Counted from the stretch's first letter, positions 20,970-43,016 are shown. The stretch is DNA of 47,969 nucleotides from Promethearchaeota archaeon (GCA_011364925.1 RDOA01000026.1:1-47969); one strand, 5' to 3'. The notes: generated by a model from the letters alone, not told the origin. Numbers and translations: made by a program.

Positions 20970-21191
20970 ATGAAAATATTGAATTCCATTAAAAAATGTA
21001 GCAAAAACCTCAAAAAGAAGGTAAAAGAATTCCTGACGGATGAGTTTGGTGGAAATCTTGTTGAATATGCTTTACTAATTGGGCTAGCTCTGTTTATATT
21101 TTTTATAATTGTCGGTGTTATAACCTCCTTGTTAGAATGGCCCATAGACTTAGCAAATAATTTATGGGATGGAATTGGGGCTAATTTTTAA
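20970..21191 (+). CDS. Flp/Fap-type prepilin
   Basis: Basic leader ending FLTDEFG, then GNLVEYALL (E+5, Y+6 Flp motif), hydrophobic helix; mature length about 46 aa. Confidence 0.85.
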   Translation: MKILNSIKKCSKNLKKKVKEFLTDEFGGNLVEYALLIGLALFIFFIIVGVITSLLEWPIDLANNLWDGIGANF

Positions 21192-21250
21192 AAAATAATG
21201 ATCGAAATTTAATTTCGGAAGGAATTCAAAAATTTTAAAATAAATAGGTT

Positions 21251-21625
21251 TTATTTAGAGGACTTTATAACTAAATTTTCGACAATCTTGATATTGTATT
21301 TTTCAGCCCAGATATGAATATTTTCTAAAACATGTTTTTTATCAACTTGTAAAAAATCTATGAATTCATTAAAAGGAATTTTATTAACTCCCTTAAACAA
21401 GTTATTAATTTTACTATTAATAGTTTTTTCATCAGGAGGGAACAATTCCCTTTTTTTCGCTTTCATTTTTTCTATTACATCATCGAACCTACCATAGTCA
21501 AAAAAGTGTTCTACAATTCTACTTATTACTGAGGCAGGTGTGCTCCCAAAAACACCAACTAGTTCTTTAACTTGATTCATACTGATTTTACTTAGAGTAA
21601 CTGTTGTTCGTGTTGTTTCAGACAT
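21251..21625 (-). CDS. Ribbon-helix-helix DNA-binding protein with C-terminal domain
   Basis: TRTTVTL strand, then helix-GSTPASVISRIV. Confidence 0.65.
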   Translation of the reverse strand: MSETTRTTVTLSKISMNQVKELVGVFGSTPASVISRIVEHFFDYGRFDDVIEKMKAKKRELFPPDEKTINSKINNLFKGVNKIPFNEFIDFLQVDKKHVLENIHIWAEKYNIKIVENLVIKSSK

Positions 21626-21847
21626 TTTTCTTATTTAATCAGTTTTGATTCACAAATATTCTAATATTTTTGTCGTTTTTAAGATTATGCTTATTGATGA
21701 TAATAATGCATAAATAAGCATCTTTATATAAAAAATGATACTATCATATAATATACATCTAGGTATTGATTCTTTAGTTAAAATGTCGAAAAATTGTCGA
21801 TAAATATTAAAACTAATACAAAAACATGAAATTAGTTGGAATAAATT

Positions 21848-22102
21848 ATGGCTGATAGAATATTTGTCAAGGATGAAATCAAAACCAAAGAATATTTCAC
21901 TCCAATTCAATACAATCTAATGAAAAAACTGGAAACTCATGGACCAACAACTCGCAGGGAATTAGTTAAGAGTCTTAATAGCCCCCGAACTACAATCTAT
22001 GATAATTTACTTAAATTACAAAAAAGGAAACTTATTGAAAAATTTACTAGAAATAATGGAATGAGAGGTAGACCTCTAGTCTTCTGGAAATTAAAAGAAT
22101 AA
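21848..22102 (+). CDS. Winged-HTH regulator (TrmB-like DNA-binding domain)
   Basis: GPTTRRELVKSLNSPRTTIYDNL..L...RGRP. Confidence 0.85.
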   Translation: MADRIFVKDEIKTKEYFTPIQYNLMKKLETHGPTTRRELVKSLNSPRTTIYDNLLKLQKRKLIEKFTRNNGMRGRPLVFWKLKE

Positions 22103-22165
22103 AATACAAATCTTTCTTTTTAATTTTTTATTCAACAATATTAATATTTTAATAAAATCTCTAAA

Positions 22166-22343
22166 ACTCCAAAATTTCCATTGGAATTTTTAATAAAATA
22201 CCGAAAAAAAAAATTTAATTAATAATAATAAAATAGCGCCCAGTTTAAAATTATTTAAGGATATTTAAATACTGTTATTAATAACATAATTTCATATCAA
22301 AACATGGTTTAAAATACTTAATTTCGAATGGAAGAAATGGGGT
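22166..22343. promoter_or_regulatory. Candidate replication origin: inverted ORB-like pair flanking an AT-rich spacer
   Basis: Minus 22186-22166 TTCCAATGGAA-ATTTT-GGAGT; plus 22323-22343 TTCGAATGGAA-GAAAT-GGGGT. Confidence 0.4.
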
Positions 22344-22394
22344 TATCCATCGGGAGTTAAAAACTAACTTTTTTTAAAAGTTTGCCTTTTTTTA

Positions 22395-24215
22395 TTATTT
22401 AGGAATATAGTAATATTCATTTATACGTTTTTGATAGACATCCTTAGTACTACCAATTTTATTAACGCGAGGACGTTTTGTAAGTTTTTCTCTTCTAAAA
22501 GTAATTCCCATCATTTTTAAAAACAGATTAAAACCATCTCTTAAACTTAAGGGAGCAAGAGCTTTTCCCTCGATACCAGGAGTTCCTTCAAAAACCAAGA
22601 TAGAATCAGCAATAAAATCCTGAGTTATGATATCGTGTTCTACTATAAAGGCTGATTTTTTTAATTCCTCTATGGATTTTCTCAATAATTGAGCTACTGT
22701 TAATCGCATTTCAATATCCAAAAAAGCAGATGGTTCATCTAATAAGTAGATATCAGCTTCCGATGACAAACAATCAGCAATAGCAACCCGCTGAAGTTCT
22801 CCGCCACTTAATTCTGAAATGCGACGTTCCTTAATATTTTCTAATTTAAGACCGTTAATCAAACGCTTTTTATAAGATTGACTTAAATAAGGCGCTAATT
22901 TAATTTTATTGAGAGTACTAGATACTAGGTTTGATTCTGGCATTTGAATATACTGAGGTTTTAACGATACTTTAAGTTTATTGAGAGAAATTTCCTCGTT
23001 GATATTGCTAATATCTCCATCCGCTTTTATATTACTAGCTATTAAATCAATAAAAGTAGATTTCCCAATCCCATTAGGGCCTAAAATACCTAAAATCTCT
23101 CCAGCGTGAACTTCACTGCCTACTACACTAAGATGAAAATCACCTAATGTTTTCTCTAAATTTTCATAGGATAGTATACTAGCACCAATATCAAATAAAG
23201 AATCAATGGGAGGTCTTTCATGGAATTTAACAGGTTCCTCTCTAATTCTAACGTTTTCATCCTTAATGTATCCATTCAGATAAATATTTATCCCAACTCG
23301 TACTCCTTGAGGATGGGAGATAATCCCATAAGCACCTGGAACCCCATAAAATAATGAAATATAGTCACTCATGTAATCTAAAATAGCTAAGTCATGTTCA
23401 ACAACTACAACAGTTTTATTGTTATTTGTTAGAGATCGAATTAGTTTAGCCATGTTAATTCTTTCTCTAACATCCAAGTAAGAGCTTGGTTCGTCGATAA
23501 GATAAATATCAGCATTTTTGAGGTAAGCAGCAGCAATGGCAACCCTTTGAACTTCTCCTCCTGATAAAACAGAAAGACTACGATCTAAAATTTCCTTGAG
23601 GTTTAATTCTCCAACAATTTTATCCAAACGATCGTCTATGTCGTTCTTCTTTAGTAAATCATACACTTTACCTGATACATGCTTAGGGATGAGAGTAATA
23701 TTTTGAGGTTTATGAACAACCTTTAACTTATTGTTAAACAAATCTATAAAATATTGCTGTAATTCTGAACCTTTAAAGAAATTTATTATCACCTCATTGT
23801 CAGGTGTGTCCTCTGCGAACTTTCCAAGATTCATTCTTAATTCACCTGATAATATAGACAACATGGTGCTTTTTCCTATACCATTTTGTCCTATCAAACC
23901 CAAGACTTTACCTTTTTTCGGGATTGCCATTCTGAACAATGAAAATTGATCTGGGCCATAGCGATAAGTAATTTGATTTTTTAATGGATCAGGAAGATTT
24001 ATAATGCTTATTGCATTAAAAGGACACTTTTTTATGCAAATTCCACACCCAGTACACAAGCTTTCTGTAATCTCAACAGATTTTCCATTTGAACTCATTT
24101 GAATTGTTTTATCTCCTGTCCTTACTTTTGGACAATATTTAATACATGGCTTTTCTCCGAATGGGCTGCATTTATCGGGTTTGCAGCGATCTTTATTAAG
24201 GACAGCAATTCTCAA
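22395..24215 (-). CDS. rli: Ribosome recycling ATPase ABCE1/Rli1
   Basis: N-terminal Fe-S Cys motifs (CTGCGICIKKCP); two ABC domains with GxNGIGKST and LSGGE. Confidence 0.97.
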   Translation of the reverse strand: MRIAVLNKDRCKPDKCSPFGEKPCIKYCPKVRTGDKTIQMSSNGKSVEITESLCTGCGICIKKCPFNAISIINLPDPLKNQITYRYGPDQFSLFRMAIPKKGKVLGLIGQNGIGKSTMLSILSGELRMNLGKFAEDTPDNEVIINFFKGSELQQYFIDLFNNKLKVVHKPQNITLIPKHVSGKVYDLLKKNDIDDRLDKIVGELNLKEILDRSLSVLSGGEVQRVAIAAAYLKNADIYLIDEPSSYLDVRERINMAKLIRSLTNNNKTVVVVEHDLAILDYMSDYISLFYGVPGAYGIISHPQGVRVGINIYLNGYIKDENVRIREEPVKFHERPPIDSLFDIGASILSYENLEKTLGDFHLSVVGSEVHAGEILGILGPNGIGKSTFIDLIASNIKADGDISNINEEISLNKLKVSLKPQYIQMPESNLVSSTLNKIKLAPYLSQSYKKRLINGLKLENIKERRISELSGGELQRVAIADCLSSEADIYLLDEPSAFLDIEMRLTVAQLLRKSIEELKKSAFIVEHDIITQDFIADSILVFEGTPGIEGKALAPLSLRDGFNLFLKMMGITFRREKLTKRPRVNKIGSTKDVYQKRINEYYYIPK

Positions 24216-24301
24216 AACTCTTTCACCACTTTTAAAAATGCAAAATCATAAATAATTTTTATCATTTGCTCAGTTAAGGTTTTTTTATTTAGTGATAAAA
24301 T

Positions 24302-26017
24302 ATGTTAAATAAACTATCAGTGCATTGGTTAGAAGATACAATTCATGAAATTTCTAAAAGAAACTTAACCAAAATAACGCTTTCAACTGGGAAAACACCC
24401 TCAGGTCATATTCATATTGGAATTCTAAGGGAAATAATTCTATGTGATGCTATTAGGAGAGTTATTGAAAAGGACGGAATCAAGGTATCTTTTTATCTAT
24501 TTATGGATGACTTTGATGCAGCTAAAAGGTTTCCCGCTTATATTGATAGTGATTATCAAAAAGAATATTTGGGTAAACCCTTTGCTTTAATTCCATGTCC
24601 TTTTGAAGATTGCCAGTGTGAGAGCTATGGTTACCACTTTGGAAACGAATTAATCTCTACATTTAAGCAATTTGGTATTAAAAACGAAATTATATGGTCC
24701 TATGAATTGTATCAGACAAAAGAAATGCAGAAACAAATTAAAATCGCATTAGACAACACAGATGAAATAAAGAAGATTCTAAGGAAATATATCTTACCTA
24801 CTCTAGACGAGGACCGCCAAAAACAATTTACTGATATGCAAAAAACTTGGATACCGGTAATGGTTCTGTGTGAAGAATGTAATAGAATACAAAGTCGAGC
24901 AGAAGACGGTTCCATTCGTCCTAATAGAGCAATAGAATATCTTGAAAAAGAACAAGCTGTAGAATATGAATGTCCTGCTTGCGGTTATAAGGGAAAAGCA
25001 TCAATTTATAGTGGAAAATTAAAACTGAACTGGCGTATCGATTGGCCCGCTAAATGGGCTCTATTTAAGACCACATGTGAACCTGCAGGAAAAGATCATA
25101 GCGTAAAAGGAGGAGCATATGATACCGGATTAGAAATTTGTCAAAAAGTATACAAATATGAAGGACCTATTAAATTACCTTATGAGTGGTTAAGATTAGG
25201 TGATCAAGATATGAAAACTTCAAAAGGGATTGTATTCACTCCAAAAAAATATTTAATATTGGCAGATCCGGAAATATACAGAATGCTAATTTTGAGAACT
25301 AATCCTATGAAACATATTGCATTACGAATCGAGGAAATCCCTCAATATAATGATTACTTTGAAAAAATGGAAAATATTTTTTACGATGTAGAGAAACCCG
25401 AATCTAAAGAGGAATATGATTTTTATAAATATTTATATCCATTAACAAAGATTGAATTAATTCCAGAAGAAAAGCCAATAAGAATCTCATTAAAATTTTT
25501 AACATTCCTTTCTCAAATGCAGAATATTTTGACCTTAGATAAATTACACGAAAAAGCGCTGTCATCTTTAAAAGATAATATGTCTAATAACACAATTTCA
25601 ATTGAAGATTTCAAAATCTTGTTAAAAAGAACAGAAAATTGGATTAATGAAATTAAAAATATAATAAACGAGACACCAGACCCTAAAATAAGAAAAAGTA
25701 TTCAGAACAAAATTGATATTTTTACTATCCTTGAAACGATTGATAAGGATTCTATCAAAAAATTGAGTGAAAACCAAATAGAAGGTCTTAAAATGTTTAG
25801 AAAATTCTTATTAGAAAATGATCAACTTACAGCAGATTTAGTTCAGAATAGAATTTTTTCTATGGCCAAAGAGACACTAAAAATTGCACCAAAAAGAATG
25901 TTTGAAGCCCTTTATCTAGTAATTTTAGGCAAAAAATCAGGACCCCGGTTAGGATCTTTTATAGTAATGTTGGATAAAGATTGGCTTATAGACAGATTAA
26001 ACCAAATAGAAAATTAG
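24302..26017 (+). CDS. lysS: Lysine--tRNA ligase, class I
   Basis: TPSGHIHIG, KLNWRIDWPAKW, EPAGKDH, MKTSKG, GPRLG. Confidence 0.96.
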   Translation: MLNKLSVHWLEDTIHEISKRNLTKITLSTGKTPSGHIHIGILREIILCDAIRRVIEKDGIKVSFYLFMDDFDAAKRFPAYIDSDYQKEYLGKPFALIPCPFEDCQCESYGYHFGNELISTFKQFGIKNEIIWSYELYQTKEMQKQIKIALDNTDEIKKILRKYILPTLDEDRQKQFTDMQKTWIPVMVLCEECNRIQSRAEDGSIRPNRAIEYLEKEQAVEYECPACGYKGKASIYSGKLKLNWRIDWPAKWALFKTTCEPAGKDHSVKGGAYDTGLEICQKVYKYEGPIKLPYEWLRLGDQDMKTSKGIVFTPKKYLILADPEIYRMLILRTNPMKHIALRIEEIPQYNDYFEKMENIFYDVEKPESKEEYDFYKYLYPLTKIELIPEEKPIRISLKFLTFLSQMQNILTLDKLHEKALSSLKDNMSNNTISIEDFKILLKRTENWINEIKNIINETPDPKIRKSIQNKIDIFTILETIDKDSIKKLSENQIEGLKMFRKFLLENDQLTADLVQNRIFSMAKETLKIAPKRMFEALYLVILGKKSGPRLGSFIVMLDKDWLIDRLNQIEN

Positions 26018-26034
26018 AACAATATCTCAACGAA

Positions 26035-26226
26035 TTAGGAAGGGTAACTGATTTCTACTTTCTTTTTCCGTTTAAACCACTTCCTTTTCTTTTTCTCTTG
26101 CAATTTTTTGTAGCAATCAGAGCAATATGTTAAACCTTCCTCAATCATTTGGTTACAGCTTTTACAATGTTTGTGAGGAAAAATATAATCAATAGATTTT
26201 TTTTTATGCCTCTCAAATTTACTCAA
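26035..26226 (-). CDS. DUF2116-like Zn-ribbon protein
   Basis: PHKHCKSC...YCSDC. Confidence 0.7.
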   Translation of the reverse strand: MSKFERHKKKSIDYIFPHKHCKSCNQMIEEGLTYCSDCYKKLQEKKKRKWFKRKKKVEISYPS

Positions 26227-26270
26227 GTTTACTATTCACCTTAAATGTAATTATAAAAATTTTTTGTAAA

Positions 26271-27530
26271 TTATAACTTTTTCACTCCGCCGACTATTTT
26301 TATTCTATAAAATTTAGCGGCTCTCAATTTTACTCTTAACTCTGAAGGATATTCCGGGAAACGCGATAAAAATGTGGATTCATCATTAATTATTTCATTA
26401 AGATTTTGTTCCCAATCACATAAAACAGTTTCAATTTTATCTGGATTTACCAAAGCAAATACCGAACCACCGCCCCCTGCTCCTGTTAATTTAGCAGAGA
26501 AAACATCGGGGTGATCTTCAATCAATTTGATTAAAATGCTATTAGAGAGTCCAATACCATGAGTAAATCCTACATGTTTCATGATACCATCCATAATGTT
26601 TGTGTTTTTTTTAAAGTACTCACCTAGTAACTTCCAATCATGTTTCATTATTGCGAAACGCGATTTCCACGATAAATCTGCGAGTTTTCTATAAGAATTC
26701 AACACAAGTGGATCCTTTAACAAATAACATCGTCTTAGTCTTTCATGTACACCTCCACTATCATGAGATACTCCGGAAAAGCAAACTATGATAGGTAAAC
26801 TTGATATATTGTAAACTAAATCCATTCGATCGTAGACTGCTAAAGGTTCTAAAGAAATGTCTTTATGGTGTAGTTTTCCATAATAAGAACAAAAACTTAA
26901 TCCTCCTCTTGTAATCACATATCGATCTCCATAACCTGCGGTTATTTTCAAATCATAGTCTTCAACTTTTGTAGCCATTTCAGCGATGATATCTCTGTTT
27001 ATAGGAAAGTCACCTTCTTTCAAGCAATTTATATTCTTATATAAATTATAATATTTAGCGAAACAATACAGAATTGCGATAATTATAGCAGCACTACCTC
27101 CTAGTCCACTTTGTGGTGGAATGGTGGTTAATATTCCAAGTTCAAAATTGGAATTTTTAAATTTCTCCCAAAAGAATGAATTTGTTCTAATAAACCTGTA
27201 AACACTCGCATAAAAGAGTTTAAAAGTCCCATTTAATTGTTCGGTTGGGAGTGTGTTATACTTTAAGATTTCTTCCTCATGGTCGACTTTTATAGTGATT
27301 TCACCAAAGTGATCACTGATCGAGTAAGATTTTATGATACTCATACATTTTCTAGGTTTAATATACACAAAAACAGATAAAGGATTTTTTAGGCCGTTAA
27401 TTGCAACGGATGGCATCCAAAAATCCCCCTCTACTGCATCTAATGGATTTATCAAATTAATCCTAGATGGTGCTTGAATAATAATCTCTGGATCTAAATT
27501 GTTAATATATTCTATAATTTCCTTTAACAT
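26271..27530 (-). CDS. GHMP-family sugar kinase, glucuronokinase-like
   Basis: APSRINL, IPPQSGLGGSAA, DSGGVH, KLTGAGGGG. Confidence 0.85.
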   Translation of the reverse strand: MLKEIIEYINNLDPEIIIQAPSRINLINPLDAVEGDFWMPSVAINGLKNPLSVFVYIKPRKCMSIIKSYSISDHFGEITIKVDHEEEILKYNTLPTEQLNGTFKLFYASVYRFIRTNSFFWEKFKNSNFELGILTTIPPQSGLGGSAAIIIAILYCFAKYYNLYKNINCLKEGDFPINRDIIAEMATKVEDYDLKITAGYGDRYVITRGGLSFCSYYGKLHHKDISLEPLAVYDRMDLVYNISSLPIIVCFSGVSHDSGGVHERLRRCYLLKDPLVLNSYRKLADLSWKSRFAIMKHDWKLLGEYFKKNTNIMDGIMKHVGFTHGIGLSNSILIKLIEDHPDVFSAKLTGAGGGGSVFALVNPDKIETVLCDWEQNLNEIINDESTFLSRFPEYPSELRVKLRAAKFYRIKIVGGVKKL

Positions 27531-27646
27531 AAGGAAAATTCACACTAATTATTTTATAATATAAATTAATTGAATTCTTAAAATCACTTTTATCAAGCCA
27601 GCAAATATGATAAGTTTTTATAATTTTTCGATATAAAATTTATGAT

Positions 27647-28783
27647 ATGATACAAAAAGGTAAATTTAGACTATTCTCATTCCTAGTTGAACAGCATTTG
27701 ATATACTACAAAAGCTTAAATAAAAATAACAAGATCGTAGCATTTTCTATTTTTAAAATCAATAAGCTACTTAAAATTATCCCGCTTCTAAATGACTTTT
27801 TGCTTAATCATTTTCTCTACTATTATTCTCTTCAGATAAGTATACCTAACAAAAGAACTAAATCGATTATTTTAGCGTTTGTTGATAATGATAAGTCTAA
27901 AATTGACAAATCTTTTAGTTTAATTTTTCAGAGAATTCTAGAATGTGATGAATCTGTTAAATTTTTGAAAAATCATAAATTAGAGAGACATTTTCTTCAT
28001 ATACTTTCTAATAAAACAAATATAGACCTTAATTCTATGCAAACGAAAGATTCTCTGATATTAAAACATGATGAAAAATTACAAGTTTTAAAGTGTTACG
28101 AAATTGATTGTAGTTATATAAAAAATGAAAAAGTTACCATACACAATTTATTAAAAGCACTAAGCAATTTCAATCAAAAGGGCTTTCTAATTTTCAATAT
28201 TAAAGCTCTTAAAAATGGAGTCCTTGTCTTAAATGCCTATTTTGTTGAGATCAAATCGGAGATAGATAATCATCCTTTCGAAATTGAAAATGAACTAAAC
28301 TTACTGTTTCACTGTGAAATCTTAAATAAGAAGATAATACGGCTAAACCAGCTTTATTGCATATTATGGAGATCAAGTTTTGCTGAAGTTTTTTATAACC
28401 TAGATAAAAACACAGATATATTCTTATCTTTAAGCCAATTTAATTTTCATAATTTTTCTAAATTCAGCGCCCAATTTGAAAAAATTTTAAACCTAAACAT
28501 AGTTGAATATCATCGCTTAAAACCAAATCTTTTTTTTATAGAAGAAAAGGTCTTGTTCTTAATTCTAGAATTTTATGATCCTGTGGAGATTAAAAGGATA
28601 TTGGAAAAATTCTTTTCAAAATATTTCATATTCATTTTGATTTTAAATACGGAGGAATATAATAAGCTGACTAAATCTAACGAAATAAGCTTGATGGATA
28701 ACATAAAAACTCTAAATTCTAGAGAATTCACTATGTTTGATTTAAAAACCTTAAAAAATGGATATATATTAAAAAATTCCTAA
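27647..28783 (+). CDS. Hypothetical protein
   Basis: 378-aa ORF; no clear motif. Confidence 0.6.
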   Translation: MIQKGKFRLFSFLVEQHLIYYKSLNKNNKIVAFSIFKINKLLKIIPLLNDFLLNHFLYYYSLQISIPNKRTKSIILAFVDNDKSKIDKSFSLIFQRILECDESVKFLKNHKLERHFLHILSNKTNIDLNSMQTKDSLILKHDEKLQVLKCYEIDCSYIKNEKVTIHNLLKALSNFNQKGFLIFNIKALKNGVLVLNAYFVEIKSEIDNHPFEIENELNLLFHCEILNKKIIRLNQLYCILWRSSFAEVFYNLDKNTDIFLSLSQFNFHNFSKFSAQFEKILNLNIVEYHRLKPNLFFIEEKVLFLILEFYDPVEIKRILEKFFSKYFIFILILNTEEYNKLTKSNEISLMDNIKTLNSREFTMFDLKTLKNGYILKNS

Positions 28784-29032
28784 ATCAATTGCTATATCTT
28801 GCGCGGAGTAGTTCGGGTGAAGTTTTATTAGAGCTTTCTTTTCTCCTTTTGGAGTTATAATCGTGTGAACTTTAATCACTTTAACATTGTGGATTTTTTC
28901 AATAGCTTGCTTAATTTGGCTTTTATTAGCTCTACTATCAACAATAAAAACCAATTTATTTTCTCTTTCAATTATATCGAATGTTTTTTCTGTGATTAAT
29001 GGCTTTTGAATGATCTTATAATATCTTTCCAT
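28769..29032 (-). CDS. rpl23: 50S ribosomal protein uL23
   Basis: PLITEK, ENKLVFIVD, GEKKA. Confidence 0.97.
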   Translation of the reverse strand: MERYYKIIQKPLITEKTFDIIERENKLVFIVDSRANKSQIKQAIEKIHNVKVIKVHTIITPKGEKKALIKLHPNYSAQDIAIDLGIF

Positions 29033-29033
29033 T

Positions 29034-29822
29034 TTAAATCAATTCCTCATATTTTTTTAATTCGTTAAAAGCAGATTGAGCCCATAAAATTAAACGCCCT
29101 GGCAAACCTCCAGGTGCTAGATGTGCAATAGATAAATTCTCAAGCTTAACAACATCTATTCCAGGAATATTTCTTGCAGCTTTGACAATACCAAAATCAT
29201 CTTTTATTACAATTAATAAGCTTTTCCTAATTTTGTATTTACGCCCTCGTCTTTTCCCTTTCCCTGCTCTAATTTTCTTACTCTTCTTAACCCTAATTAA
29301 GTCATCTTTTAAACCCAATTCAGTAAGAATTGAGTATATTAACTTAGTTTTTCTTACAGTTTGAATTTTATCGTCAACCACAAGTGGAATCTCAGGAACT
29401 TTATCTATCTTATGACCTCGATTTTTTACCCATTCTGAATCTCCAGAAGCTGAAATTGCAGATATTATTGAGAGTTTATGTATTTTTTTGTTTATTTTTT
29501 TTTCAATATTCTTTTCGGTTTTGATTGGGTGTGCTCTTCTCCCACCTTTGGCGAATGGAACGCGCCCAACGTTTCTAGCTGTAGAAAAGCCCGATCCCTT
29601 TATGCGCGGAGCTCTTGACATTTCATGACCTGTGCCCCAGCTTTCAGCAGTATTCCTTAATCCTGCGCTTTTATTTCTGCCTTGAGCTTGTTTATTTTTA
29701 CTCGAAGCGACCTCACTTGCTATTTGTATCAGGTCTTTTCTGGATTTAGAGTAAAATAACTGAGGTATATCAACTAAATTTTTCTTTTTACCATCTAAAT
29801 CATATATGTTAACTTTTTCCAT
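29034..29822 (-). CDS. rpl4: 50S ribosomal protein uL4
   Basis: AESWGTG, GGRRAHP, IRAGKGKRRGR, LAPGG.PGRL. Confidence 0.97.
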   Translation of the reverse strand: MEKVNIYDLDGKKKNLVDIPQLFYSKSRKDLIQIASEVASSKNKQAQGRNKSAGLRNTAESWGTGHEMSRAPRIKGSGFSTARNVGRVPFAKGGRRAHPIKTEKNIEKKINKKIHKLSIISAISASGDSEWVKNRGHKIDKVPEIPLVVDDKIQTVRKTKLIYSILTELGLKDDLIRVKKSKKIRAGKGKRRGRKYKIRKSLLIVIKDDFGIVKAARNIPGIDVVKLENLSIAHLAPGGLPGRLILWAQSAFNELKKYEELI

Positions 29823-29840
29823 AAAATCACAATTTTTACA

Positions 29841-30860
29841 TTATTTTCTTTGTTGACTTTCCCTACAAATGAAGGTAATTTCCGGTGATTTAACAGTAAA
29901 GGTTTTAATTGGTCTTATAGTTTTTCTAATTCTCACTAATCTGTTTTTTGGACCCGGTATTGATCCTAGCACTAAAAGATAATCTCCCTTCACTTTACCA
30001 TATTTTACAAATCCTCCTTTTGGATTAATTTCCTCCTCGTTCTCTCCAATTACCATAATCCTTTTATGATATTCTGTTCTCTGATGAAACCCCAATTGTC
30101 CTGGTCGAGGAACTGTATATAATACTCGTGCTGGGTGCCAAGGGCCTATACACGCTACAGCTCTTTGAACTTTATTGTTTTTTCGTGTTAAGAGTCTGAC
30201 GCCAAATCTTTTAACTGGGCCTTGAAAACCTTTACCTTTAGTCACTGCTAAAATGTCGACTAGTTCTCCTTCTATTAAAATGTCTCGTACCCTAATTTCG
30301 TTCCCTAATAAATTTAAAGCGAAATTAAATTCCTCAACTGAATCACCAACGGAATTTACTTGAATCTCAATAATATCTGGTTTTTTCCTTGGCAATGAGG
30401 TTAGATGAGGCTGAGTTTGAAAAATTCCCCTAATCTGACTTGTATTGTTTAATGCTTTTATTAGTTTTTCTTTCGTTGATTCAAAGTCATAATTTTCAAA
30501 ATTTGGTATACTGATTTTTCTTCTTAGATAATCGTTCAATTCAGTTGAAAAAATATCTCCAACTATATATTTTCCATACTCGTCTTCATTATAAACTCTA
30601 ATTCCAATTAAGATCAATGGTGGTACTTCAATGACGGTAACAGGTTTCATTAATTCTTTACCAAAATAGGGGCTATTCTTTTGGTCCTCTATATAGGTAA
30701 TATGGGTCATTCCCGCCTTGAAACCTGCGTAACCTAAAAATATTAAGCTATCCGATGTATTTAACCATCGTCTTACTCGACCCTTGGTTATAGCAGCCCT
30801 TTTTCTAGGAAGAAAAGCTAAAGAACCATGTCTCGGTGCGTGTTTTTTACGATGCCCCAT
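29841..30860 (-). CDS. rpl3: 50S ribosomal protein uL3
   Basis: PRHGSLAFLPRKR, KAGMTH, TKGKGFQGPVKR, GFHQRTEY. Confidence 0.98.
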   Translation of the reverse strand: MGHRKKHAPRHGSLAFLPRKRAAITKGRVRRWLNTSDSLIFLGYAGFKAGMTHITYIEDQKNSPYFGKELMKPVTVIEVPPLILIGIRVYNEDEYGKYIVGDIFSTELNDYLRRKISIPNFENYDFESTKEKLIKALNNTSQIRGIFQTQPHLTSLPRKKPDIIEIQVNSVGDSVEEFNFALNLLGNEIRVRDILIEGELVDILAVTKGKGFQGPVKRFGVRLLTRKNNKVQRAVACIGPWHPARVLYTVPRPGQLGFHQRTEYHKRIMVIGENEEEINPKGGFVKYGKVKGDYLLVLGSIPGPKNRLVRIRKTIRPIKTFTVKSPEITFICRESQQRK

Positions 30861-30990
30861 GAATAATCACTTTTATGTTAAAGCTTTAAATTTTTCAAAA
30901 TAAAAAAAGTTTGTCATTCAGAAATGAGTATTATTCCTAGCAAATTAGGAAAAATGGACTTTTTAAATTTTCGTAGAAAATAATTATTAG

Positions 30991-33177
30991 ATGAAATCAA
31001 AGATTGAGAAATTAAATGTACACCTAGTCAAAGAATGCGTATTTAATAAAGATGAGCGAATTTTCACTAAAGATTGCTCTAAGTGTTCAGAATCGATAGG
31101 CGATGTTGATGATTATGAACAATGTGTTAAGTGTCTTTTAAAGAGTATATATTTGGGAAATAATAAGGATTTTAAAAAATCAAATTTGAAAATTCATGGT
31201 ACTGTAATTGAACCCGGTACGATTAAAATTATTTTAAATTATTTTAAAAAGCTCAAGGAAATAAATAAGATTTGGAGGAGGATCGAAAAAGTTGGAAAGT
31301 CTGATTGTATTTTTCAAGAGTTTAATTGTAGGGTTGAGAGTATAAATAATGCATTACTTTCCTTTAATGAAAGTGTTATCTTTGATCCAATTCTAGTATT
31401 CAATTTACTTATTGATGTAAAAGATGAAATTCTTGCTCATAAATTTTTAAATATTGAATGTCAGAAGTGCTCTATAAAGATATTGGACTTGTTGGATTCC
31501 ATTTTAGAAATTTTTAAGAATTTGGAAATTGTTATACAATATTTGAAATTTTTGGAAAATAATAACAATTCTAAAGACATAAGCATGTTTTACAAAAAAA
31601 TTTTTTTTAATTCACAAAAAATCTTTAATGAAAGTGGAATAATTAACGGCATCCTTAGATCTTCTCGTGGCGAATTGCTTGAATCTTATTGTTCTGGTGA
31701 AAATCGAATATTCCAGATATCTATTTTCAATATTAAAGGTGAATATGAAAAGAAATACTTGGTTAACTATGATTTTGATTCAAAAGGCGATGAAAAATAT
31801 TTTAAAACTATCGTGAACGATGTTAAAAATAACCTAACTTTAATCGAGTCTAATGAAATTATACCATTAGAGGAATTAATAAATTTTTACAAGAAAAAAG
31901 CTTCAGATTACTTAAATTTAAAATACAAACTTTCACAAAAAGAAATTGATAAAGTCTCATACATTGCAGCATTATATAAGTTAAACTTAGAGAAGATCTT
32001 TCCCCTTCTAGTTGATGACCTTATCGAGGAAATATTTTTGGATTCTCCAATTGAAAAAATTTATATCAATCACCAAAAATACGGACGCTGTCGGACAGAA
32101 TTAGGATTTAATCATAATGATATCGAAAGAATTAAAACCTTTTTAAGATTGTACAGTGGAAAAAGACTTGATTACTCGAATCCAAGCATCAAAGTAGTAT
32201 TAAAGAATAAATATTTTTATTGTCGATTTGCTGTCGATGTTGAACCAATTCAGTTGAATAATTTTGCGTTAGATATAAGGAAATTAAATAAGAATATATT
32301 AACTATTCAAGATTTGTTAAAAAATGATACTTTAAGTCCGTCACTAGCATCATTTTTATATATATTAGTTTTAAGAAGAATAAATATAACTGTTACCGGA
32401 GAAACAGATACAGGAAAAACAACTTTAATTAATGCATTAGATCTATTAACTCCAAAGGAATTTCGAAAAATATATGTAGAAAATGTGAATGAATCTTTAA
32501 ACCAATCCAGATTCGAAAGACATCAATTAAAATATAAAGTTGATTCTCTTGAAGACCTAACAAATCATCTACTTTCAAAACAAAATCAAATTAAGAATTT
32601 ATTGCACAGAACTCCGGACATTATCTATTTAGGCGAAATTCTAACTAAAAATGAAGCTGAAGCGATGTTTCACTGTTTAGCTGCGGGTTTGCGGGGTTTT
32701 CAAACAATTCATTCTAACACTATTAATTCTTTGATTAATAGAATAATTCATCACTTTAAAATTGATAAAACCTGCTTGCACGACTTAGGAATCTTAATAT
32801 TAATGAAAAAAAACAGAGAAAAAAGATTCATTGATTCTATTACAGAGATGCGCGAAAAGTTAGATGAAGATAATGAAATTTATGAAAATTTATTCAAACG
32901 CGATCCTCGTATAAAAAATTGGACCATGCTTAAAGACTTATATAATTCGAATACTATTAAGACTTTAAGAAAATACGAGGATTTGCAAAAAGAAAAATTT
33001 GATACTTTATTCTATTTATATCATGATGTGTTCGACACGCTTCGAAAGTTAGATAAAATAATTATCACCAAATTAATTGAGCTTTTTGATCAACTTTCGT
33101 TTCAATCATTTATTAGCGTAGACGCCCTTCGTTTATTCTGGAAAAACTGGAAAAACACTTGTGGTTTAAATGTATAG
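30991..33177 (+). CDS. Type IV pilus/Tad assembly ATPase (TadA/CpaF/VirB11 family) with Cys-rich N-terminus
   Basis: DIRK, Walker A GETDTGKTT, Asp box VENVNE, Walker B PDIIYLGE, His box QTIH. Confidence 0.9.
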   Translation: MKSKIEKLNVHLVKECVFNKDERIFTKDCSKCSESIGDVDDYEQCVKCLLKSIYLGNNKDFKKSNLKIHGTVIEPGTIKIILNYFKKLKEINKIWRRIEKVGKSDCIFQEFNCRVESINNALLSFNESVIFDPILVFNLLIDVKDEILAHKFLNIECQKCSIKILDLLDSILEIFKNLEIVIQYLKFLENNNNSKDISMFYKKIFFNSQKIFNESGIINGILRSSRGELLESYCSGENRIFQISIFNIKGEYEKKYLVNYDFDSKGDEKYFKTIVNDVKNNLTLIESNEIIPLEELINFYKKKASDYLNLKYKLSQKEIDKVSYIAALYKLNLEKIFPLLVDDLIEEIFLDSPIEKIYINHQKYGRCRTELGFNHNDIERIKTFLRLYSGKRLDYSNPSIKVVLKNKYFYCRFAVDVEPIQLNNFALDIRKLNKNILTIQDLLKNDTLSPSLASFLYILVLRRINITVTGETDTGKTTLINALDLLTPKEFRKIYVENVNESLNQSRFERHQLKYKVDSLEDLTNHLLSKQNQIKNLLHRTPDIIYLGEILTKNEAEAMFHCLAAGLRGFQTIHSNTINSLINRIIHHFKIDKTCLHDLGILILMKKNREKRFIDSITEMREKLDEDNEIYENLFKRDPRIKNWTMLKDLYNSNTIKTLRKYEDLQKEKFDTLFYLYHDVFDTLRKLDKIIITKLIELFDQLSFQSFISVDALRLFWKNWKNTCGLNV

Positions 33178-33193
33178 ATTAGTATAATGTGAT

Positions 33194-33607
33194 ATGACAA
33201 ATTTGTTAGAAAAAGCATTACTGATGGGTTTTGGAATAATTGTTCTAACAATTTTTATTTCGTTGATTAATCCTTTTATAGTTCAAATATCAGATTTTAA
33301 CGAAAACAATAAATCCAATATAGAACAGTATGAAAATCTCTTTCATGAGGTAGATACAGGAATTAAATTTATAATTGAGAATCCAAATGGGATATTTTCT
33401 AAACCCGTTGAATACCCTAAAAAGCTAAACATAACATTAACGGATTTCTATTGTAAATTTGAGTACATAATAAATGATAATTATTATTATAAAATATTCG
33501 AATATCTTAAACCTTTTATAGATAACAGCTATATAGATTTACCAGAAAGTAGCTATATCTTAAAAATCTCAAGTAGTTACAATTTTGTTGTAGTTCAATT
33601 TAACTAG
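33194..33607 (+). CDS. Pilin-like protein without a class III leader
   Basis: MTNLLEKALLMGFGIIVLTIF N-terminal helix; lies between the ATPase and platform genes. Confidence 0.65.
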   Translation: MTNLLEKALLMGFGIIVLTIFISLINPFIVQISDFNENNKSNIEQYENLFHEVDTGIKFIIENPNGIFSKPVEYPKKLNITLTDFYCKFEYIINDNYYYKIFEYLKPFIDNSYIDLPESSYILKISSSYNFVVVQFN

Positions 33608-33616
33608 TTCAATAAT

Positions 33617-35146
33617 GTGGATAAATTTATGAGATCACTTACAACATTAATCCGATTTTATCATTACATTCACCCTTATAAGATTCCTAAATTGAAATTT
33701 AAAGAAATGGATAATCGATACAAAATATTATTGAAAAAAGAATACAATATTGACGAAAATGATATCAATAAATCCAATTTCATAATATTCGTAATTATTT
33801 TTAGTATATTTCTATTCTCTTTGACTTTTTTTACCAAATTCAATATATTAATAAACGTATCCTCCTCTTTTCTACTAGCTTTAATAGGCTCTTATTTTTT
33901 TAGTCAATATCTTTACAAAGAGATTAAAAAAGAAGAGAATCAGTTGAATGCATTACTCTATATTGTGAAAATTTACTTTACTTTAATCCAAAAATCCTAT
34001 GGAGATAAAGCTGATCACGCAATTAATTTCATCAAACTTATCAGCGAATTTAAACTTCCAATCTCAGAAGATTTTAGAAATTTACTCAGTAAAATCCAAT
34101 TAGGTGAAAATCCAGAAATTCTATTGTCAAAAGTAACCACACCCTCTTCGGATTTTAATTTGTATATTAAAAGACTTCTGTTATCAAATTTTAGCTATGA
34201 TAACACTTTTGATGATAATTCCTTGGAAAAGAAGTTTAGAAAGTATCTAAGAGAAATCGAATCAAAATTGAGTATTTTATTTTTTTTTGGGTTGTTTTTC
34301 CCACTAGGATTGTGTTTACTAATACTGTTCCATAGAATGAACTATCTCATATTGGTTTCTACATTGCCTTTATTTTTCATCAGTATAAGGACGCTAAATA
34401 AGAAATTTTTAAAAAAAAATTTTTTCCTTCTCGGATTAATAAATAATTATTCAAGGGAAGAGAAAGCAAAATTTAAAGAATTTATATCTTTTTTACTGAG
34501 CTTTACATTGAATTTGAAGCAGTACACTTCTCCTGAAATAGCATTTGTGAAAGCATATTCAAACAATCAAATTCAGTATAGTATATTGGAGAAACCTTTA
34601 AAATCCCAGATTTATCTACTTTTAAACTTTTCCTGTACCTTTAAGGAGATCCTGGAGAATCTACAGAATAGTTTGACATCAATCAGATATAAAATAATTT
34701 TAGATGTAATTGAGAAATTAGTTGCCAAGAACGCATATTTGTCTCACGAAAAAATTTCAGAAATAATAAATGAGCTATCCTTTCATCAACAACTCGAAAG
34801 CCGGTTAGATATCATAATAAAGGGAGAAAAATTTAAAGTTTTGCTTTTTTTATTTCTTTTACCGATAATAACGGGAGGAATTGGAGGTCTTTTTCCACTG
34901 TTCAATTTTATTTTAGGAAATTTTTCGCTTCATAGTGCCATAAACTTTTCTATTTTCTTTGAATTATTATTGACGTATGATTTCATTATAACATTTCTTT
35001 CCCTTTTGTTTTGTGTTAATATATCCTCTCATTATTTCTTAGAAATCATATCAATTGAGAGAAAAAGGATTCTGACAGCAGTTTCAAATGCAATATTTAT
35101 ACTAGCGTTCTTTTCAACATTTATTAGTATTATTAATTTTTTTTAG
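33617..35146 (+). CDS. Pilus membrane platform protein (TadB/TadC, T2SS-F-like, two fused repeats)
   Basis: ISEDFRNLLSKIQLGENPE T2SSF-like segment, repeated TM pairs, operonic with the ATPase. Confidence 0.7.
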   Translation: MDKFMRSLTTLIRFYHYIHPYKIPKLKFKEMDNRYKILLKKEYNIDENDINKSNFIIFVIIFSIFLFSLTFFTKFNILINVSSSFLLALIGSYFFSQYLYKEIKKEENQLNALLYIVKIYFTLIQKSYGDKADHAINFIKLISEFKLPISEDFRNLLSKIQLGENPEILLSKVTTPSSDFNLYIKRLLLSNFSYDNTFDDNSLEKKFRKYLREIESKLSILFFFGLFFPLGLCLLILFHRMNYLILVSTLPLFFISIRTLNKKFLKKNFFLLGLINNYSREEKAKFKEFISFLLSFTLNLKQYTSPEIAFVKAYSNNQIQYSILEKPLKSQIYLLLNFSCTFKEILENLQNSLTSIRYKIILDVIEKLVAKNAYLSHEKISEIINELSFHQQLESRLDIIIKGEKFKVLLFLFLLPIITGGIGGLFPLFNFILGNFSLHSAINFSIFFELLLTYDFIITFLSLLFCVNISSHYFLEIISIERKRILTAVSNAIFILAFFSTFISIINFF

Positions 35147-35160
35147 CACCATATCTAACT

Positions 35161-35457
35161 TTAGTTAAAGAAAGAAATGTAAATCAATTCAACAAATAAA
35201 AGAATTCCAATTAATAAAACTATTAGTTGTGAATAAGAAATTATTGATTTAACTAAATTGGTGTCATAACCCTCATTTAAAGCCACTAAGTTTATTTCAC
35301 TTATTACTTGAAAGAAGGGTATTAAAAAAATGAAAAAAAGAATAATAGAAATAAAGACTGTCATAGATTCAGCGGAAATTATTGAAAACATAAATAAAAA
35401 AATAAAAAGTGCTAATAAAATAATGAATTCTATAAAAATTAAATGAAATTCAGTCAT
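35161..35457 (-). CDS. Small three-TM membrane protein
   Basis: Highly hydrophobic ORF. Confidence 0.55.
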   Translation of the reverse strand: MTEFHLIFIEFIILLALFIFLFMFSIISAESMTVFISIILFFIFLIPFFQVISEINLVALNEGYDTNLVKSIISYSQLIVLLIGILLFVELIYISFFN

Positions 35458-35553
35458 ACTCTAGTATTTTTTAAAAAAAATATTTAAAATTCTAAAAAAT
35501 TAAATTGTAAAAGGATTATCGTAATCCTAGAAAATATTATATAAAAAAATGAT

Positions 35554-36054
35554 TTGATTATAATTATGAGAAATTTAAAATTGAAGGGACTAAAATACAA
35601 TAGAGGTAAATACGATTTATACGATGAGCGATTTGTATTTTTCCCTCCCCAAATAATTGATATTTTATCGTCGATTTATGGAGAAGGTGTTAAATCTTTA
35701 TTAGTTTGGTTAGGTAAAAAGGCTGGGTGGGGGCTGATTCAAAATTGGGATGATATTTTAAAGTCAAAATCATTAAATGATTTAGTTACTCAATTTTGTT
35801 CTATTCTAAGCAATCACGGATGGGGGAGATTTTCTCCTACGAAAATATCTGATAACTTAGTTGTAATTGAACTGTTTCATAACATTTCGAATGATTTAAA
35901 TAATCAATCCAAATACGTTTGTTATTATATAACAGGAATTTTGGCTGGTTTTGGGGAATATGCACTTTATAAAGTTAATGTAATAGAAAATACATGTTGT
36001 ATTGAGGATCCAAGTTTAAAATCATGCGAATTTAGGATAGAAAAAAACTTATGA
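35554..36054 (+). CDS. V4R domain protein (TRAPP/Bet3-related fold); start possibly ATG 35566
   Basis: LGKKAG, HGWGRF, VCYYITGILAG, ENTC...CEFRI. Confidence 0.85.
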   Translation: MIIIMRNLKLKGLKYNRGKYDLYDERFVFFPPQIIDILSSIYGEGVKSLLVWLGKKAGWGLIQNWDDILKSKSLNDLVTQFCSILSNHGWGRFSPTKISDNLVVIELFHNISNDLNNQSKYVCYYITGILAGFGEYALYKVNVIENTCCIEDPSLKSCEFRIEKNL

Positions 36055-36063
36055 GCGGACAAT

Positions 36064-36450
36064 TCACCAAGGATCCCATTCTTCAGGATTAAGTTCCTCT
36101 GTGTCGTTATCATCAAGAATCTTTTCTTCAATTTCATGCTCATTTTTATATGATTCACTTTTGTTAGGATCTTGATTCATTGCTGGTATTACTTCTTTAG
36201 AATTTAAATCTTCGAGGTTAGAAACCTGATCTTCGCCAATTATCACATCCTTAAAGGCAGAAATTAGTGATAAGAAATTAAAAAACTCCTCCTTTTTCAT
36301 TTCAACAACTAAAGACTCACTATTTTTTAATAAAGTTAGCTTTAGAGTCCGAACTTCTCCACTTACTTCAACTGATGTCAATTCAATGCTTTCATTTTTG
36401 TTTTTTAACTGAATTTTCCATGATGTCTCTCTCGTTTTTTCAATTTCCAT
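36064..36450 (-). CDS. Hypothetical protein with acidic-aromatic C-terminal tail
   Basis: Beta-rich N-terminal domain, disordered linker, DDNDTEELNPEEWDPW end. Confidence 0.7.
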   Translation of the reverse strand: MEIEKTRETSWKIQLKNKNESIELTSVEVSGEVRTLKLTLLKNSESLVVEMKKEEFFNFLSLISAFKDVIIGEDQVSNLEDLNSKEVIPAMNQDPNKSESYKNEHEIEEKILDDNDTEELNPEEWDPW

Positions 36451-36590
36451 CTGTCAAAATTCACTCTAAAGGTAATTACAATTCAATTACTTAATAAAAA
36501 TTAACCAATTTAAAATTATCCTTATCACCATTTCATCCTTGTTAAATAAAAGAACACTCAAAGAAAGATTTCATACCACCATCGCCTTCT

Positions 36591-37253
36591 TTAACAAAAA
36601 TAATTGAACATTATGTAATTATTCATAAAAAAGATGAGGATAACAAGGGGAGGTCTATATTGAGCTAGAATTTGAAATTTTTCCTTTTTTCTGTTATATA
36701 ACAAATTCAAAGACTTTATGATGTATTTATTGTTTCGATAATTTTCAATTTGAGAGAAATCTAAAAATCTGTAAAAGATCATGATAAAAACCTTATGTGA
36801 AAAAGTAGGCCTTTCTAATAAACCATATAACATCTCAAACGTACTATTTCTTTCATAAATTTTGAAGAAGAAATATCTAACCAATATCAGGAAGAAATAT
36901 AAGAACAAAAATACGAAAAAGAAAGAGAATATCAAAGAGAAATTAAGTTTTTGAGTAGGATAAAAAAAAATAAGCATAATTAATAATTTACCATCACCCC
37001 CTCCTATTGCTTTTAAACAAAATAATATAAAAGAGAAAATAGCTACAATAAGTAGGAAAAATAACTTTGTGAAGATGAGAATAAAGATGTTATAATAACT
37101 AGCTGTAACTTCAGTAAAAATCAATAAACTCCCAACCAATAAAAATCCAAACAATGGCTCATTTGATATTTCCCTGTATTTAATATCCCGGTACATGCAA
37201 TAAATTAGTACGATATTTGTATAGAACAAAGAAAAAATAACATTTAATATCAT
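36591..37253 (-). CDS. Prepilin peptidase, family A24
   Basis: DIKYREISN and IGGGDGKL catalytic Asp motifs; multi-TM. Confidence 0.88.
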   Translation of the reverse strand: MILNVIFSLFYTNIVLIYCMYRDIKYREISNEPLFGFLLVGSLLIFTEVTASYYNIFILIFTKLFFLLIVAIFSFILFCLKAIGGGDGKLLIMLIFFYPTQKLNFSLIFSFFFVFLFLYFFLILVRYFFFKIYERNSTFEMLYGLLERPTFSHKVFIMIFYRFLDFSQIENYRNNKYIIKSLNLLYNRKKEKFQILAQYRPPLVILIFFMNNYIMFNYFC

Positions 37254-37256: not shown

Positions 37257-37550
37257 TCATAGTTCGCCTTCCCATATCTCTATAAACTTGCTTAAACTCT
37301 TAGCACGTAGATCTTCAAATTTGTATCGATAAATTTTTATTCTCCCAAATAATTTTTCTTGAACCAAGTTATAGGATTTCAAATAAGCTAAATGATTTTT
37401 AACGCTTGTATGATTAAGTTTTGCATCTTTTATGATTTGAGAAATTGACATTTCCTTGTTTTTCGATAATAATTTTAATATTTTTACCCTTGCTCTTGAC
37501 CCTAATAAGTTTTCTATACCGCAGTTTTCAGCTATATCTTCCAGCATCAA
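37257..37550 (-). CDS. ArsR-like winged-HTH protein
   Basis: LGSRARVKILKLL...ISQI...LNHTSVKNHL..L...FGRIKIY. Confidence 0.85.
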   Translation of the reverse strand: MMLEDIAENCGIENLLGSRARVKILKLLSKNKEMSISQIIKDAKLNHTSVKNHLAYLKSYNLVQEKLFGRIKIYRYKFEDLRAKSLSKFIEIWEGEL

Positions 37551-38761
37551 ATCTCAATCCCCTTAGTTTGTAAAATGTTTACCAGAATTTCTTCAAATTT
37601 TGAAATTGGAATGTCTTGAACCGATATTAAGGCTTTACGACCCTTAATCGACTCACTTTTTATCTCCATATTAATAAGGCACTCTCTTTTAAATTCTTGA
37701 AGGTAGTTCCATAACTGGGAATGAGATCGAGGGTGTATAGCTAAATTCTCACATATTATCAAATAAGAATTAGTTATTTCCAGTACAGAAACCTGAATCC
37801 TTCCACTCTTCTTCAAAGCAGTAATTATTCCTAACAAAAAAATACCTTTTTGTATTGGTATGTATTTCAAAACATCAATAGTAGAAAAAGGAACGATATC
37901 ATGATTTGCTAGTCTCACACACTCCATCGTAATATGTTTTAAATTCTGATTTTCAGCAATTTTAGTTGCTTTCCAGATCAAATTTAAACCATACCTAATG
38001 TCTCCACTTTGATAAACTAAATCTGCAATAGTCTCAATTAGTTTATCTGACATTACATTTTCTTTTAAACTTAGGCTAACCCTATATCTTAAAATAACAC
38101 ATAATTGCTCATTAGTATATTTTTTAAAATGAATTATATTCCTTTGCAAGGTACTCATAGTGCTTATATCTAGACTACTTATACAGGATATATCCCTTAC
38201 AATTCCTATAATAGATATATGTTGCTGATTATTGAAAGAATCATCATTAATTCTTGTAAGAGAATAAATTAAATCTTCACTATTATTTATTAAATAACTT
38301 AATTCGTCTAATACTATTAATAAATGAAAATTTTGATTGTGTACAATGTCTATGATGATGTCAAGCAAATCTTGAGGAGAATATCCCCTTTTAGGAAAAT
38401 TTATGTTAAGAGTATCAATTATTTTGATTAATACTTTATAGCTAGTCCTTTCTTTCCGACAGTTTATGTGGATGTATTTGATTACATTTGATCTTTTACG
38501 CGCTGCGTTCATTAACATTTCTCCAAATAGTTTAATCGTAGCAGTTTTTCCAATCCCAGTTTTCCCGGTAATCAATATTTTCCGCGAAATTGAATTCGGG
38601 TTCGTTATTAATTCTAAAAATAGTCGAGATAGTAGTGATAATTCCTTTTCTCTATGCGGTAGTTTATTAGGAATATAGCTATTCTCTAGAGCTCTCTCAC
38701 ATTTAAATAGTGTTGGTTTTCTTAATAAATCTTCAAAGTAATCAATTGTCATAGAGAACAT
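37547..38761 (-). CDS. cdc6: Orc1/Cdc6 replication initiator family protein
   Basis: YIPNKLPHRE, GKTGIGKT, IVLDE, GDIR, C-terminal winged helix with KGR. Confidence 0.93.
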   Translation of the reverse strand: MFSMTIDYFEDLLRKPTLFKCERALENSYIPNKLPHREKELSLLSRLFLELITNPNSISRKILITGKTGIGKTATIKLFGEMLMNAARKRSNVIKYIHINCRKERTSYKVLIKIIDTLNINFPKRGYSPQDLLDIIIDIVHNQNFHLLIVLDELSYLINNSEDLIYSLTRINDDSFNNQQHISIIGIVRDISCISSLDISTMSTLQRNIIHFKKYTNEQLCVILRYRVSLSLKENVMSDKLIETIADLVYQSGDIRYGLNLIWKATKIAENQNLKHITMECVRLANHDIVPFSTIDVLKYIPIQKGIFLLGIITALKKSGRIQVSVLEITNSYLIICENLAIHPRSHSQLWNYLQEFKRECLINMEIKSESIKGRKALISVQDIPISKFEEILVNILQTKGIEI

Positions 38762-40992: not shown

Positions 40993-41102
40993 TGCTTCTG
41001 CCGGGATTTGAACCCGGGTCGCGAGGGTGAGAGCCTCACATGCATAATCCTTCTTTCTAATATAAGAAAAGAGTAAGTTTGACCGAACTACACTACAGAA
41101 GC
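40993..41102 (-). tRNA. tRNA-Glu(CTC) with a 35-nt intron at 21/22 (41044-41078)
   Basis: GCTTCTG/CAGAAGC acceptor, loop CTCTCAC, T arm CCGGG-TTCAAAT-CCCGG; mature length 75 nt. Confidence 0.93.
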
Positions 41103-42499: not shown

Positions 42500-42739
42500 T
42501 TGAATCGAATTCAAAACCAATCTAAGGAAGTCCAATTTATTACACCGTCTCATCACGATTTATTAAAGGAACTTATTGAAGATGTAGAAAAATTTTTGAA
42601 GGGAAAGAGAAATGTAATGTATTCTGATATTATTAATCTAATTATAAGAGAAGACTATAGAGGAAAAAGGTTCAATGAAATAATAGTATGGTGTAATTAT
42701 AAAATAAAGCAAGGAAAGTATGATATAATGATCGAATAG
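42500..42739 (+). CDS. Small hypothetical protein
   Basis: 79-aa ORF preceded by GGAGAGG. Confidence 0.5.
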   Translation: MNRIQNQSKEVQFITPSHHDLLKELIEDVEKFLKGKRNVMYSDIINLIIREDYRGKRFNEIIVWCNYKIKQGKYDIMIE

Positions 42740-43016
42740 AATAAACTCTAAAAAAATTTCTTAAAATCAAGAAGAATAACTCAAAGAATTAGTTCTGTTC
42801 ATTAATTTTAGGTATCTAGAATCTTGCAATTGGCTTTTAACTTTAAACTCATACATTACTGAGAATTAAAACTAAAATAAAGTTAAAAATGCGTAATTAT
42901 ATTAATATTTAATAATATTATTTTATAAAGACCAAAGAGATGGTTCTATTATAGTTAGGTATATAATAAACATAGCTCGGTCTTTTATATGAGATAACTT
43001 CAAAGAGGATCATTAT

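Follow-up and report, generated by a model that had tools for sequence, protein, structure and literature searches.

Subclade 4D of the archaeal type IV filament systems was defined by Makarova et al. in 2016 (PMC4858521) as a pilin-less set, comprising an ATPase with a Cys-containing N-terminus, a membrane protein of 4-5 transmembrane segments and a TFIIB paralogue encoded beside Rpb8. These components correspond to arCOG05558 (ATPase), arCOG05557/13890 (membrane protein) and arCOG05559 (TFIIB) (PMC4858521; PMC13705601). A 2026 survey (PMC13705601) likewise describes 4D as a pilin-less remnant and the filament components of Asgard archaea as scattered and mostly unassignable. Here we describe a set of five filament genes, termed the module, in a 47,969-nucleotide stretch of DNA, the window, from a Promethearchaeota archaeon (GCA_011364925.1, RDOA01000026.1:1-47969): a major prepilin, a minor pilin, an assembly ATPase, a membrane platform and an A24 prepilin peptidase. 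Together they probably constitute an intact, pilin-bearing form of the 4D-lineage machine, a form of which we found no description in the literature; the orthology, the intact catalytic motifs, the fold of the platform and the linkage of the genes are established below.

Two other systems share features with this set. The archaeal Epd pilus (Makarova clade 1; Methanococcus maripaludis) has a role in adhesion, and Denise et al. (PMC6668835) placed clade 1 as the archaeal branch nearest to bacterial TadA. The second is the bacterial Tad/Flp system (type IVc). The original prediction, made from the window alone, proposed a complete minimal filament of Flp/Tad type that might be intermediate between archaeal pili and Tad, on the premise that archaeal pilins usually have a globular domain; short archaeal pilins that lack one were already known from Epd (PMC6668835, PMC13705601).

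The five genes are spread over 16 kb (positions 20970-37253). All five open reading frames were confirmed, as was that of a nearby Ig-like surface protein, with the correction that the A24 and Ig-like genes lie on the minus strand. The source genome is 100% complete and, judged by the names of its homologues, belongs to the Lokiarchaeia. Genome searches returned one assembly ATPase, one A24 peptidase, one platform and one major pilin, and no archaellum ATPase was found; a second PF00437 match proved to be a PIN-domain ATPase of the PINA type, not a filament ATPase. Apart from these five genes, no type IV filament set was found in this genome. One unpublished genome (G352) is the basis of no claim made here.

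The assembly ATPase and its relation to subclade 4D

The assembly ATPase (30991..33177, plus strand; 728 aa) has a Cys-rich N-terminus and a T2SSE domain (PF00437, E 7e-15), and its Walker A motif, Asp-box glutamates, Walker B motif and His box are intact. It had been called TadA-like, but it scores better against FlaI/archaeal GspE than against TadA/CpaF, both in NCBIfam (2e-26 versus 1e-18) and in the PDB (1.5e-24 versus 1.6e-12). We built a tree of 68 ATPase sequences (IQ-TREE, LG+C20 PMSF), in which the Epd references come from Thermococcales only and the 4D loci were picked by an ATPase of 342-343 aa (Pyrobaculum type) with TFIIB/Rpo8 neighbours. The window ATPase, the module ATPases of other Asgard archaea and several Thermoproteota, and Pyrobaculum/Vulcanisaeta-type subclade 4D formed one clade (support 100/100), whose sister group consists of long, Cys-rich ATPases of DPANN and Thermoplasmata (99/95). 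The module+4D clade stayed after removal of long branches (Shimodaira-Hasegawa-like approximate likelihood ratio test, 100), with loss of support for the deep order. A Caldivirga ATPase with a score of 1e-75 belongs to subclade 4B, not to 4D, and falls outside this clade.

The likeness to 4D is not confined to the ATPase and its Cys-containing N-terminal domain. A divergent TFIIB/TFB paralogue, the hallmark of subclade 4D, is encoded 8 kb from the ATPase in the window (41235..42263, minus strand); in most Asgard and TACK loci its gene is next to that of the ATPase or close by, and in most relatives the two are adjacent. The tgt/Lsm/Rpo8/S17e neighbourhood together with the TFB-like gene is common to Odinarchaeum and 4D loci, and the membrane protein of Vulcanisaeta-type 4D matches the module platform profile (E 8e-5). 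In contrast to 4D as defined, which has no pilin and one short membrane protein, the module has a major and a minor pilin, a two-domain platform and an A24 peptidase, and its range extends to most of Asgard plus several Thermoproteota lineages. Because pilin, minor pilin and peptidase are present, the module is an intact relative of 4D and not 4D as it was defined; the simplest reading is that 4D is a decayed Thermoproteales copy of the complete system.

The same trees bear on the proposal that the module is a Tad-like system, whether as an evolutionary intermediate linking archaeal pili to bacterial Tad or as a Tad system that was taken over from bacteria. Archaeal ATPases were split from TadA with support of 100/99, and an approximately unbiased test rejected a clade of module and TadA (p=0.0078), which excludes a Tad origin under the LG+C20 PMSF model and makes an intermediate unlikely. 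The archaeal branch nearest TadA was the Thermococcales clade 1 (Epd-type), in line with PMC6668835, and the window ATPase stood apart from it. The phylogenetic check that had been suggested, against TadA and archaeal clades, places the ATPase within the archaeal radiation, with the 4D lineage. In favour of the Tad proposal, a tree with the module as the first archaeal branch was worse but not rejected (p=0.072), and in Odinarchaeum and one other lineage (L074:11723-12388, L088:6329-6991) the ATPase gene has as its neighbour a MinD/ParA-like gene with an altered Walker A motif, a candidate for a TadZ/FlhG-like protein. No TadZ, RcpC or RcpA was seen in the window, to which this inspection was limited, no genome-wide search having been made.

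Pilins, platform and peptidase

The major prepilin (20970..21191, plus strand; 73 aa) carries the motif DEFG^GNLVEYALL and a conserved Trp, and has no globular domain. It bears a class III signal (G/A at -1, E5 and a hydrophobic helix), and the predicted cleavage after G27 would leave a mature form of about 46 aa with an E5-Y6 pilin motif. Across the family E32 is invariant and W57 nearly so, and the pilin was detected in 48 of 61 relatives. The pilins of the cultured strains are QEE14865.1 and UYP46425.1; the supplements of the Candidatus Lokiarchaeum ossiferum paper hold no entry for it. Homologues in deeper-branching genomes of the Lokiarchaeia class that are without a charged leader or G/A at -1 (L061:15197-15400, L063:7870-8055, L072, L073) may be leaderless or differently processed.

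The E5-Y6 motif that had suggested an Flp pilin is present in the window, but the assignment to Flp is not borne out by the family. The window pilin has no match to Pfam Flp_Fap, for which the best family member reaches only E 0.023, and position +6 among 150 family representatives is Glu in 99, Tyr in 25 and Ser in 8, leaving E5 alone near-constant. In the loci inspected Tyr6 is confined to part of the Lokiarchaeia, with Ser in MK-D1 and L. ossiferum. Automatic pipelines label pilin homologues 'Flp family type IVb pilin', as RefSeq does for the MK-D1 orthologue, and Flp-type sequences (one named Flp by JGI) turn up among the lowest-ranking matches of the pilin profile. The best explanation for the likeness is a common short-pilin design, with Tyr6 having arisen within the Lokiarchaeia.

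The minor pilin (33194..33607, plus strand; 137 aa) is a leaderless paralogue of the major pilin, and an iterated hidden Markov model built on it retrieves major pilins. Its E6 is nearly invariant and, judging from the sequence, would come to position 5 if the Met were removed. The AlphaFold2 model (predicted local distance difference test, pLDDT, 92) has a long N-terminal helix and a beta-sheet head, and the Atlas lead for the protein is PF04021 at 0.90; the VIA structure search returned generic helices only, and the head fold is for that reason left without assignment.

The inner-membrane platform (33617..35146, plus strand; 509 aa) is a single fused gene of T2SSF/GspF fold. It has no Pfam match, PF00482 being matched by 2 of 15 orthologues, and Foldseek on the PDB returned no match. 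Its model (pLDDT 74) has a TM-score of 0.75 to an archaeal T2SSF cluster in the Atlas, and the top VIA rows, which concern the cytoplasmic domains, were SpoIIIAB (Z 10.4), PilC-N (9.2) and EpsF (8.7). The gene had been described as a fused TadB/C-like platform; it is fused, but fusion is the usual archaeal arrangement and not that of Tad. The fused form is found in the window and in Lokiarchaeia; two genes occur in many other Asgard and TACK lineages, among them Odinarchaeum, Freyarchaeum and Heimdallarchaeaceae, and the two split genes found in relatives each match the window platform. The A24 prepilin peptidase (36591..37253, minus strand; 220 aa; PF01478, E 1e-11), the only A24 in the genome, retains both catalytic Asp residues, and D23, G84 and D87 (GxGD) are invariant in 16 homologues.

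Set against bacterial Tad, the parts thus present a mixed picture. The very short E5 pilin (with Y6 in the window), the short A24 peptidase, the single motor ATPase and the TadB/TadC-like split of the platform in many relatives all resemble Tad. The module differs in an ATPase that lies outside the TadA clade, a fused platform in the window, a Tyr6 that is not family-wide (25 of 150) and a linked TFB paralogue, and its distribution looks vertical over Asgard and TACK. On this evidence a Tad-like identity is very improbable. Like Epd, the module is archaeal, has a short major pilin that lacks a globular domain, and in relatives comes with two platform genes; the PF04021-like lead of the minor pilin is a further likeness. 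It departs from Epd in that its only A24 peptidase is of 220 aa, with no long EppA peptidase of nine transmembrane segments, in its pilin motif (SPxxEE/GxxxEY, against QxSxE in Epd), and in that no DUF2341 adhesins were seen.

Gene order, distribution and joint loss

In the window the ATPase, minor pilin and platform genes are closely packed on the plus strand, with intergenic gaps of 16 and 9 bases, and the A24 gene is preceded by cdc6 and then a winged helix-turn-helix gene. In a second family (f2, with L. ossiferum and Promethearchaeum syntrophicum MK-D1 among its members) the genes form a compact cluster on a single strand, in the order Ig/PKD protein, pilin, cdc6, winged helix-turn-helix gene, A24, ATPase, minor pilin, platform. 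The 16-kb spread of the window is a local rearrangement of this cluster; dispersal, as originally noted, is a trait of the window's family and not a general one, the cultured Lokiarchaeia being compact. Compact versions recur in Odinarchaeum, Freyarchaeum, Heimdallarchaeaceae and other Asgard lineages, and in Methanosuratincola, Nezhaarchaeales, Culexarchaeum and Brockarchaeota (in the last with the linked pilin named). Such loci typically combine the ATPase and a TFB-like gene with one or two platform genes and a pilin of 55-86 aa, and A24 and small pilin-like genes are often present as well.

With the pilin in 48 of 61 relatives and the ATPase in 94 of 121 genomes of the class, recurrence exceeds what chance would give. 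Across Asgard an orthologue or homologue of the ATPase is present in 200 of 221 genomes, and 49 of 201 Thermoproteota gave strong matches. The parts co-occur and are clustered in relatives, in agreement with the co-occurrence that had been anticipated. The best explanation is vertical inheritance, reaching back at least to ancestors that Asgard and Thermoproteota had in common. In some Lokiarchaeia the module or the pilin is present twice, the second copy being rearranged (G129:C7, which is L514; G061, G127, G008), and one such copy adjoins a large HerA-like membrane protein.

Joint loss of the genes was observed in one lineage (contigs G074:C11, loci L501 and L505, and G099:C43, locus L506). 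In genome G074 (98% complete) the contig syntenic with the window is intact and keeps about 20 flanking genes but lacks the module genes: the pilin gap lies between intact HIT and RHH genes, the block of ATPase, minor pilin, platform and a 98-aa gene is gone from between rpl3 and V4R, and the A24, TFB-like and 378-aa genes are each absent at separate sites. Genome-wide searches found none of the lost module genes in G074 or its congener G099, and no cdc6 homologue in G074; the congeners G073 and G090 carry ATPase, peptidase, TFB-like gene and 378-aa gene. In other genomes of the genus where pilin and ATPase were both absent, those tested were also without rpl3 (and cdc6 where checked). Since rpl3 was missing too, these absences were treated as assembly gaps, and only G074 and G099 were counted as loss. 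The compact f2 cluster, its recurrence elsewhere and the multi-site loss in G074 lead us to conclude that the genes act as one system, and the prediction of a complete minimal type IV filament set stands.

The joint loss also draws attention to further genes. The small membrane protein of 98 aa (35161..35457, minus strand) accompanies the module and is lost alongside it. A 378-aa protein (27647..28783, plus strand), likewise lost with the module and beside the platform gene in G129, is a candidate accessory part to which Pfam and the Atlas gave no assignment. A V4R-domain protein (35554-36054) lies inside the region but is retained in G074, and is therefore probably not part of the pilus system.

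Linked genes and the possible role of the filament

In the probable mechanism, the 73-aa prepilin would be stripped of its basic leader by the A24 peptidase, and the leaderless paralogue of 137 aa would prime or cap the filament. The single ATPase, acting on the GspF-fold platform, would draw mature pilins of ~46 aa out of the membrane to build a thin filament like that of Flp, which it may extend and retract in the manner of CpaF. The TFB paralogue would probably drive expression of the gene set. As its most likely role we tentatively favour adhesion to surfaces or cells, helped by the linked Ig/PKD surface protein, on the analogy with Epd and Tad and because that protein is linked. The window gene encodes a membrane-anchored Ig-like protein (39022..40239, minus strand; Big_1, E 3e-5) whose N-terminal domain has homologues in the PKD-repeat proteins encoded immediately upstream of the pilin gene in MK-D1 and L. 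ossiferum. Searches of G074 and G099 did not find the Ig-like gene, but neither did a search of G073, where the system is retained, and the co-loss of this gene is accordingly weak evidence.

DNA uptake is the next most likely role, held with less confidence. DNA transfer is a function of some Tad and Ups pili. In a fuller version, itself somewhat doubtful, the same pilus would capture DNA, a HerA/VirB4-like ATPase would translocate it, and Cdc6 and TFB would tie the process to cell cycle or stress. It is a serious rival to adhesion because a membrane-anchored DUF87 HerA/VirB4-like ATPase follows directly after the pilin in Thermoproteota (L260, L348-L362) and Cdc6 is persistently linked in Asgard, where larger HerA/VirB4-like homologues also lie near the module in some loci (L089, L090, L060, L061). 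The Cdc6/Orc1 homologue of the window (37547..38761, minus strand) neighbours the module across Asgard and is lost with it, a linkage that could merely reflect a conserved chromosomal region. Moreover, the source genome has no linked HerA-like gene, homologues on its other contigs matching the ATPase domain only, and has Ig/PKD surface proteins linked instead. A bolder version, in our view rather unlikely, is an ancient machine of Asgard and Thermoproteota with the TFB paralogue as dedicated initiation factor and Cdc6 linked, building a mini-pilus that retracts and serves to take up DNA or to exchange it between cells with a HerA/VirB4-like pump.

Several points weigh against an intact pilus of the 4D lineage. 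No filament is so far ascribed to the module, and the cryo-electron tomography paper on L. ossiferum makes no mention of pili; filaments of Hodarchaeales, 15-25 nm, are described as thicker than pili (10.1101/2025.02.26.640444). The module ATPases sit on a long stem and their position among archaeal clades is uncertain, Thorarchaeia-like loci carry the ATPase without a nearby platform, and some pilin homologues are without a clear leader. The co-loss in G074 and G099 is probably one event, and where searched it also took Nif3 and a 202-aa membrane gene without known link. One could accordingly suppose that there is no external pilus but a short pseudopilus, a repurposed motor that secretes or positions Ig/PKD proteins, or a transcription-linked device as proposed for 4D, which Makarova et al. 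(PMC4858521) and PMC13705601 call a repurposed remnant. The TFB paralogue as most constant neighbour and the lack of reported pili on L. ossiferum would suit this account. The set is complete, however: its pilin is conserved and cleavable, it has a minor pilin, and its peptidase is intact. It is kept across two phyla and was lost as a whole, and we consider the account without an external pilus decidedly unlikely.

Some observations lie beside these questions. In four RNA libraries from a single study, contigs with loose ends reach very high depth over the segment that separates the PKD gene from the pilin in L. ossiferum (L066:7950-8220). The segment has no Rfam match, looks conserved in L056 and L057, and may be a repeat or an abundant non-coding RNA. 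Most of the L. ossiferum locus is covered by contigs from the RNA libraries of one study; these can neither rank expression nor exclude DNA and were not used as evidence. In the window, positions 42500-46813 encode a pair of small GTPases together with a roadblock-like protein and partners, a cluster that on inspection of the sequence resembles MglA/MglB; it also occurs close to the pilus genes at several Asgard loci (L054, L060, L065, L070) and could be a polarity module. The 5' part of an archaeal 16S rRNA gene lies at the contig end (47166-47969), a tRNA match of 110 nt, probably intron-containing, at 40993-41102, and a second, partial tRNA match at 14757-14819.

An intact, pilin-bearing module would supply the missing pilin for subclade 4D, held as a pilin-less remnant by the 2016 and 2026 surveys, and would correct the view of Asgard filament genes as scattered and unassignable, with one defined system in most sampled lineages. 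It calls for no revision of the origin of Tad. The G074/G099 lineage is a natural knock-out that names further candidate parts. Were the bolder DNA-exchange version true, the archaeal ancestor of eukaryotes would probably have had such a mini-pilus. MK-D1, like the source genome, yielded no type IV filament ATPase other than that of the module, which makes the system a prime candidate for the means by which these syntrophs make contact with partners or take up DNA, and because the cultured strains carry it as a single cluster, it is directly testable.

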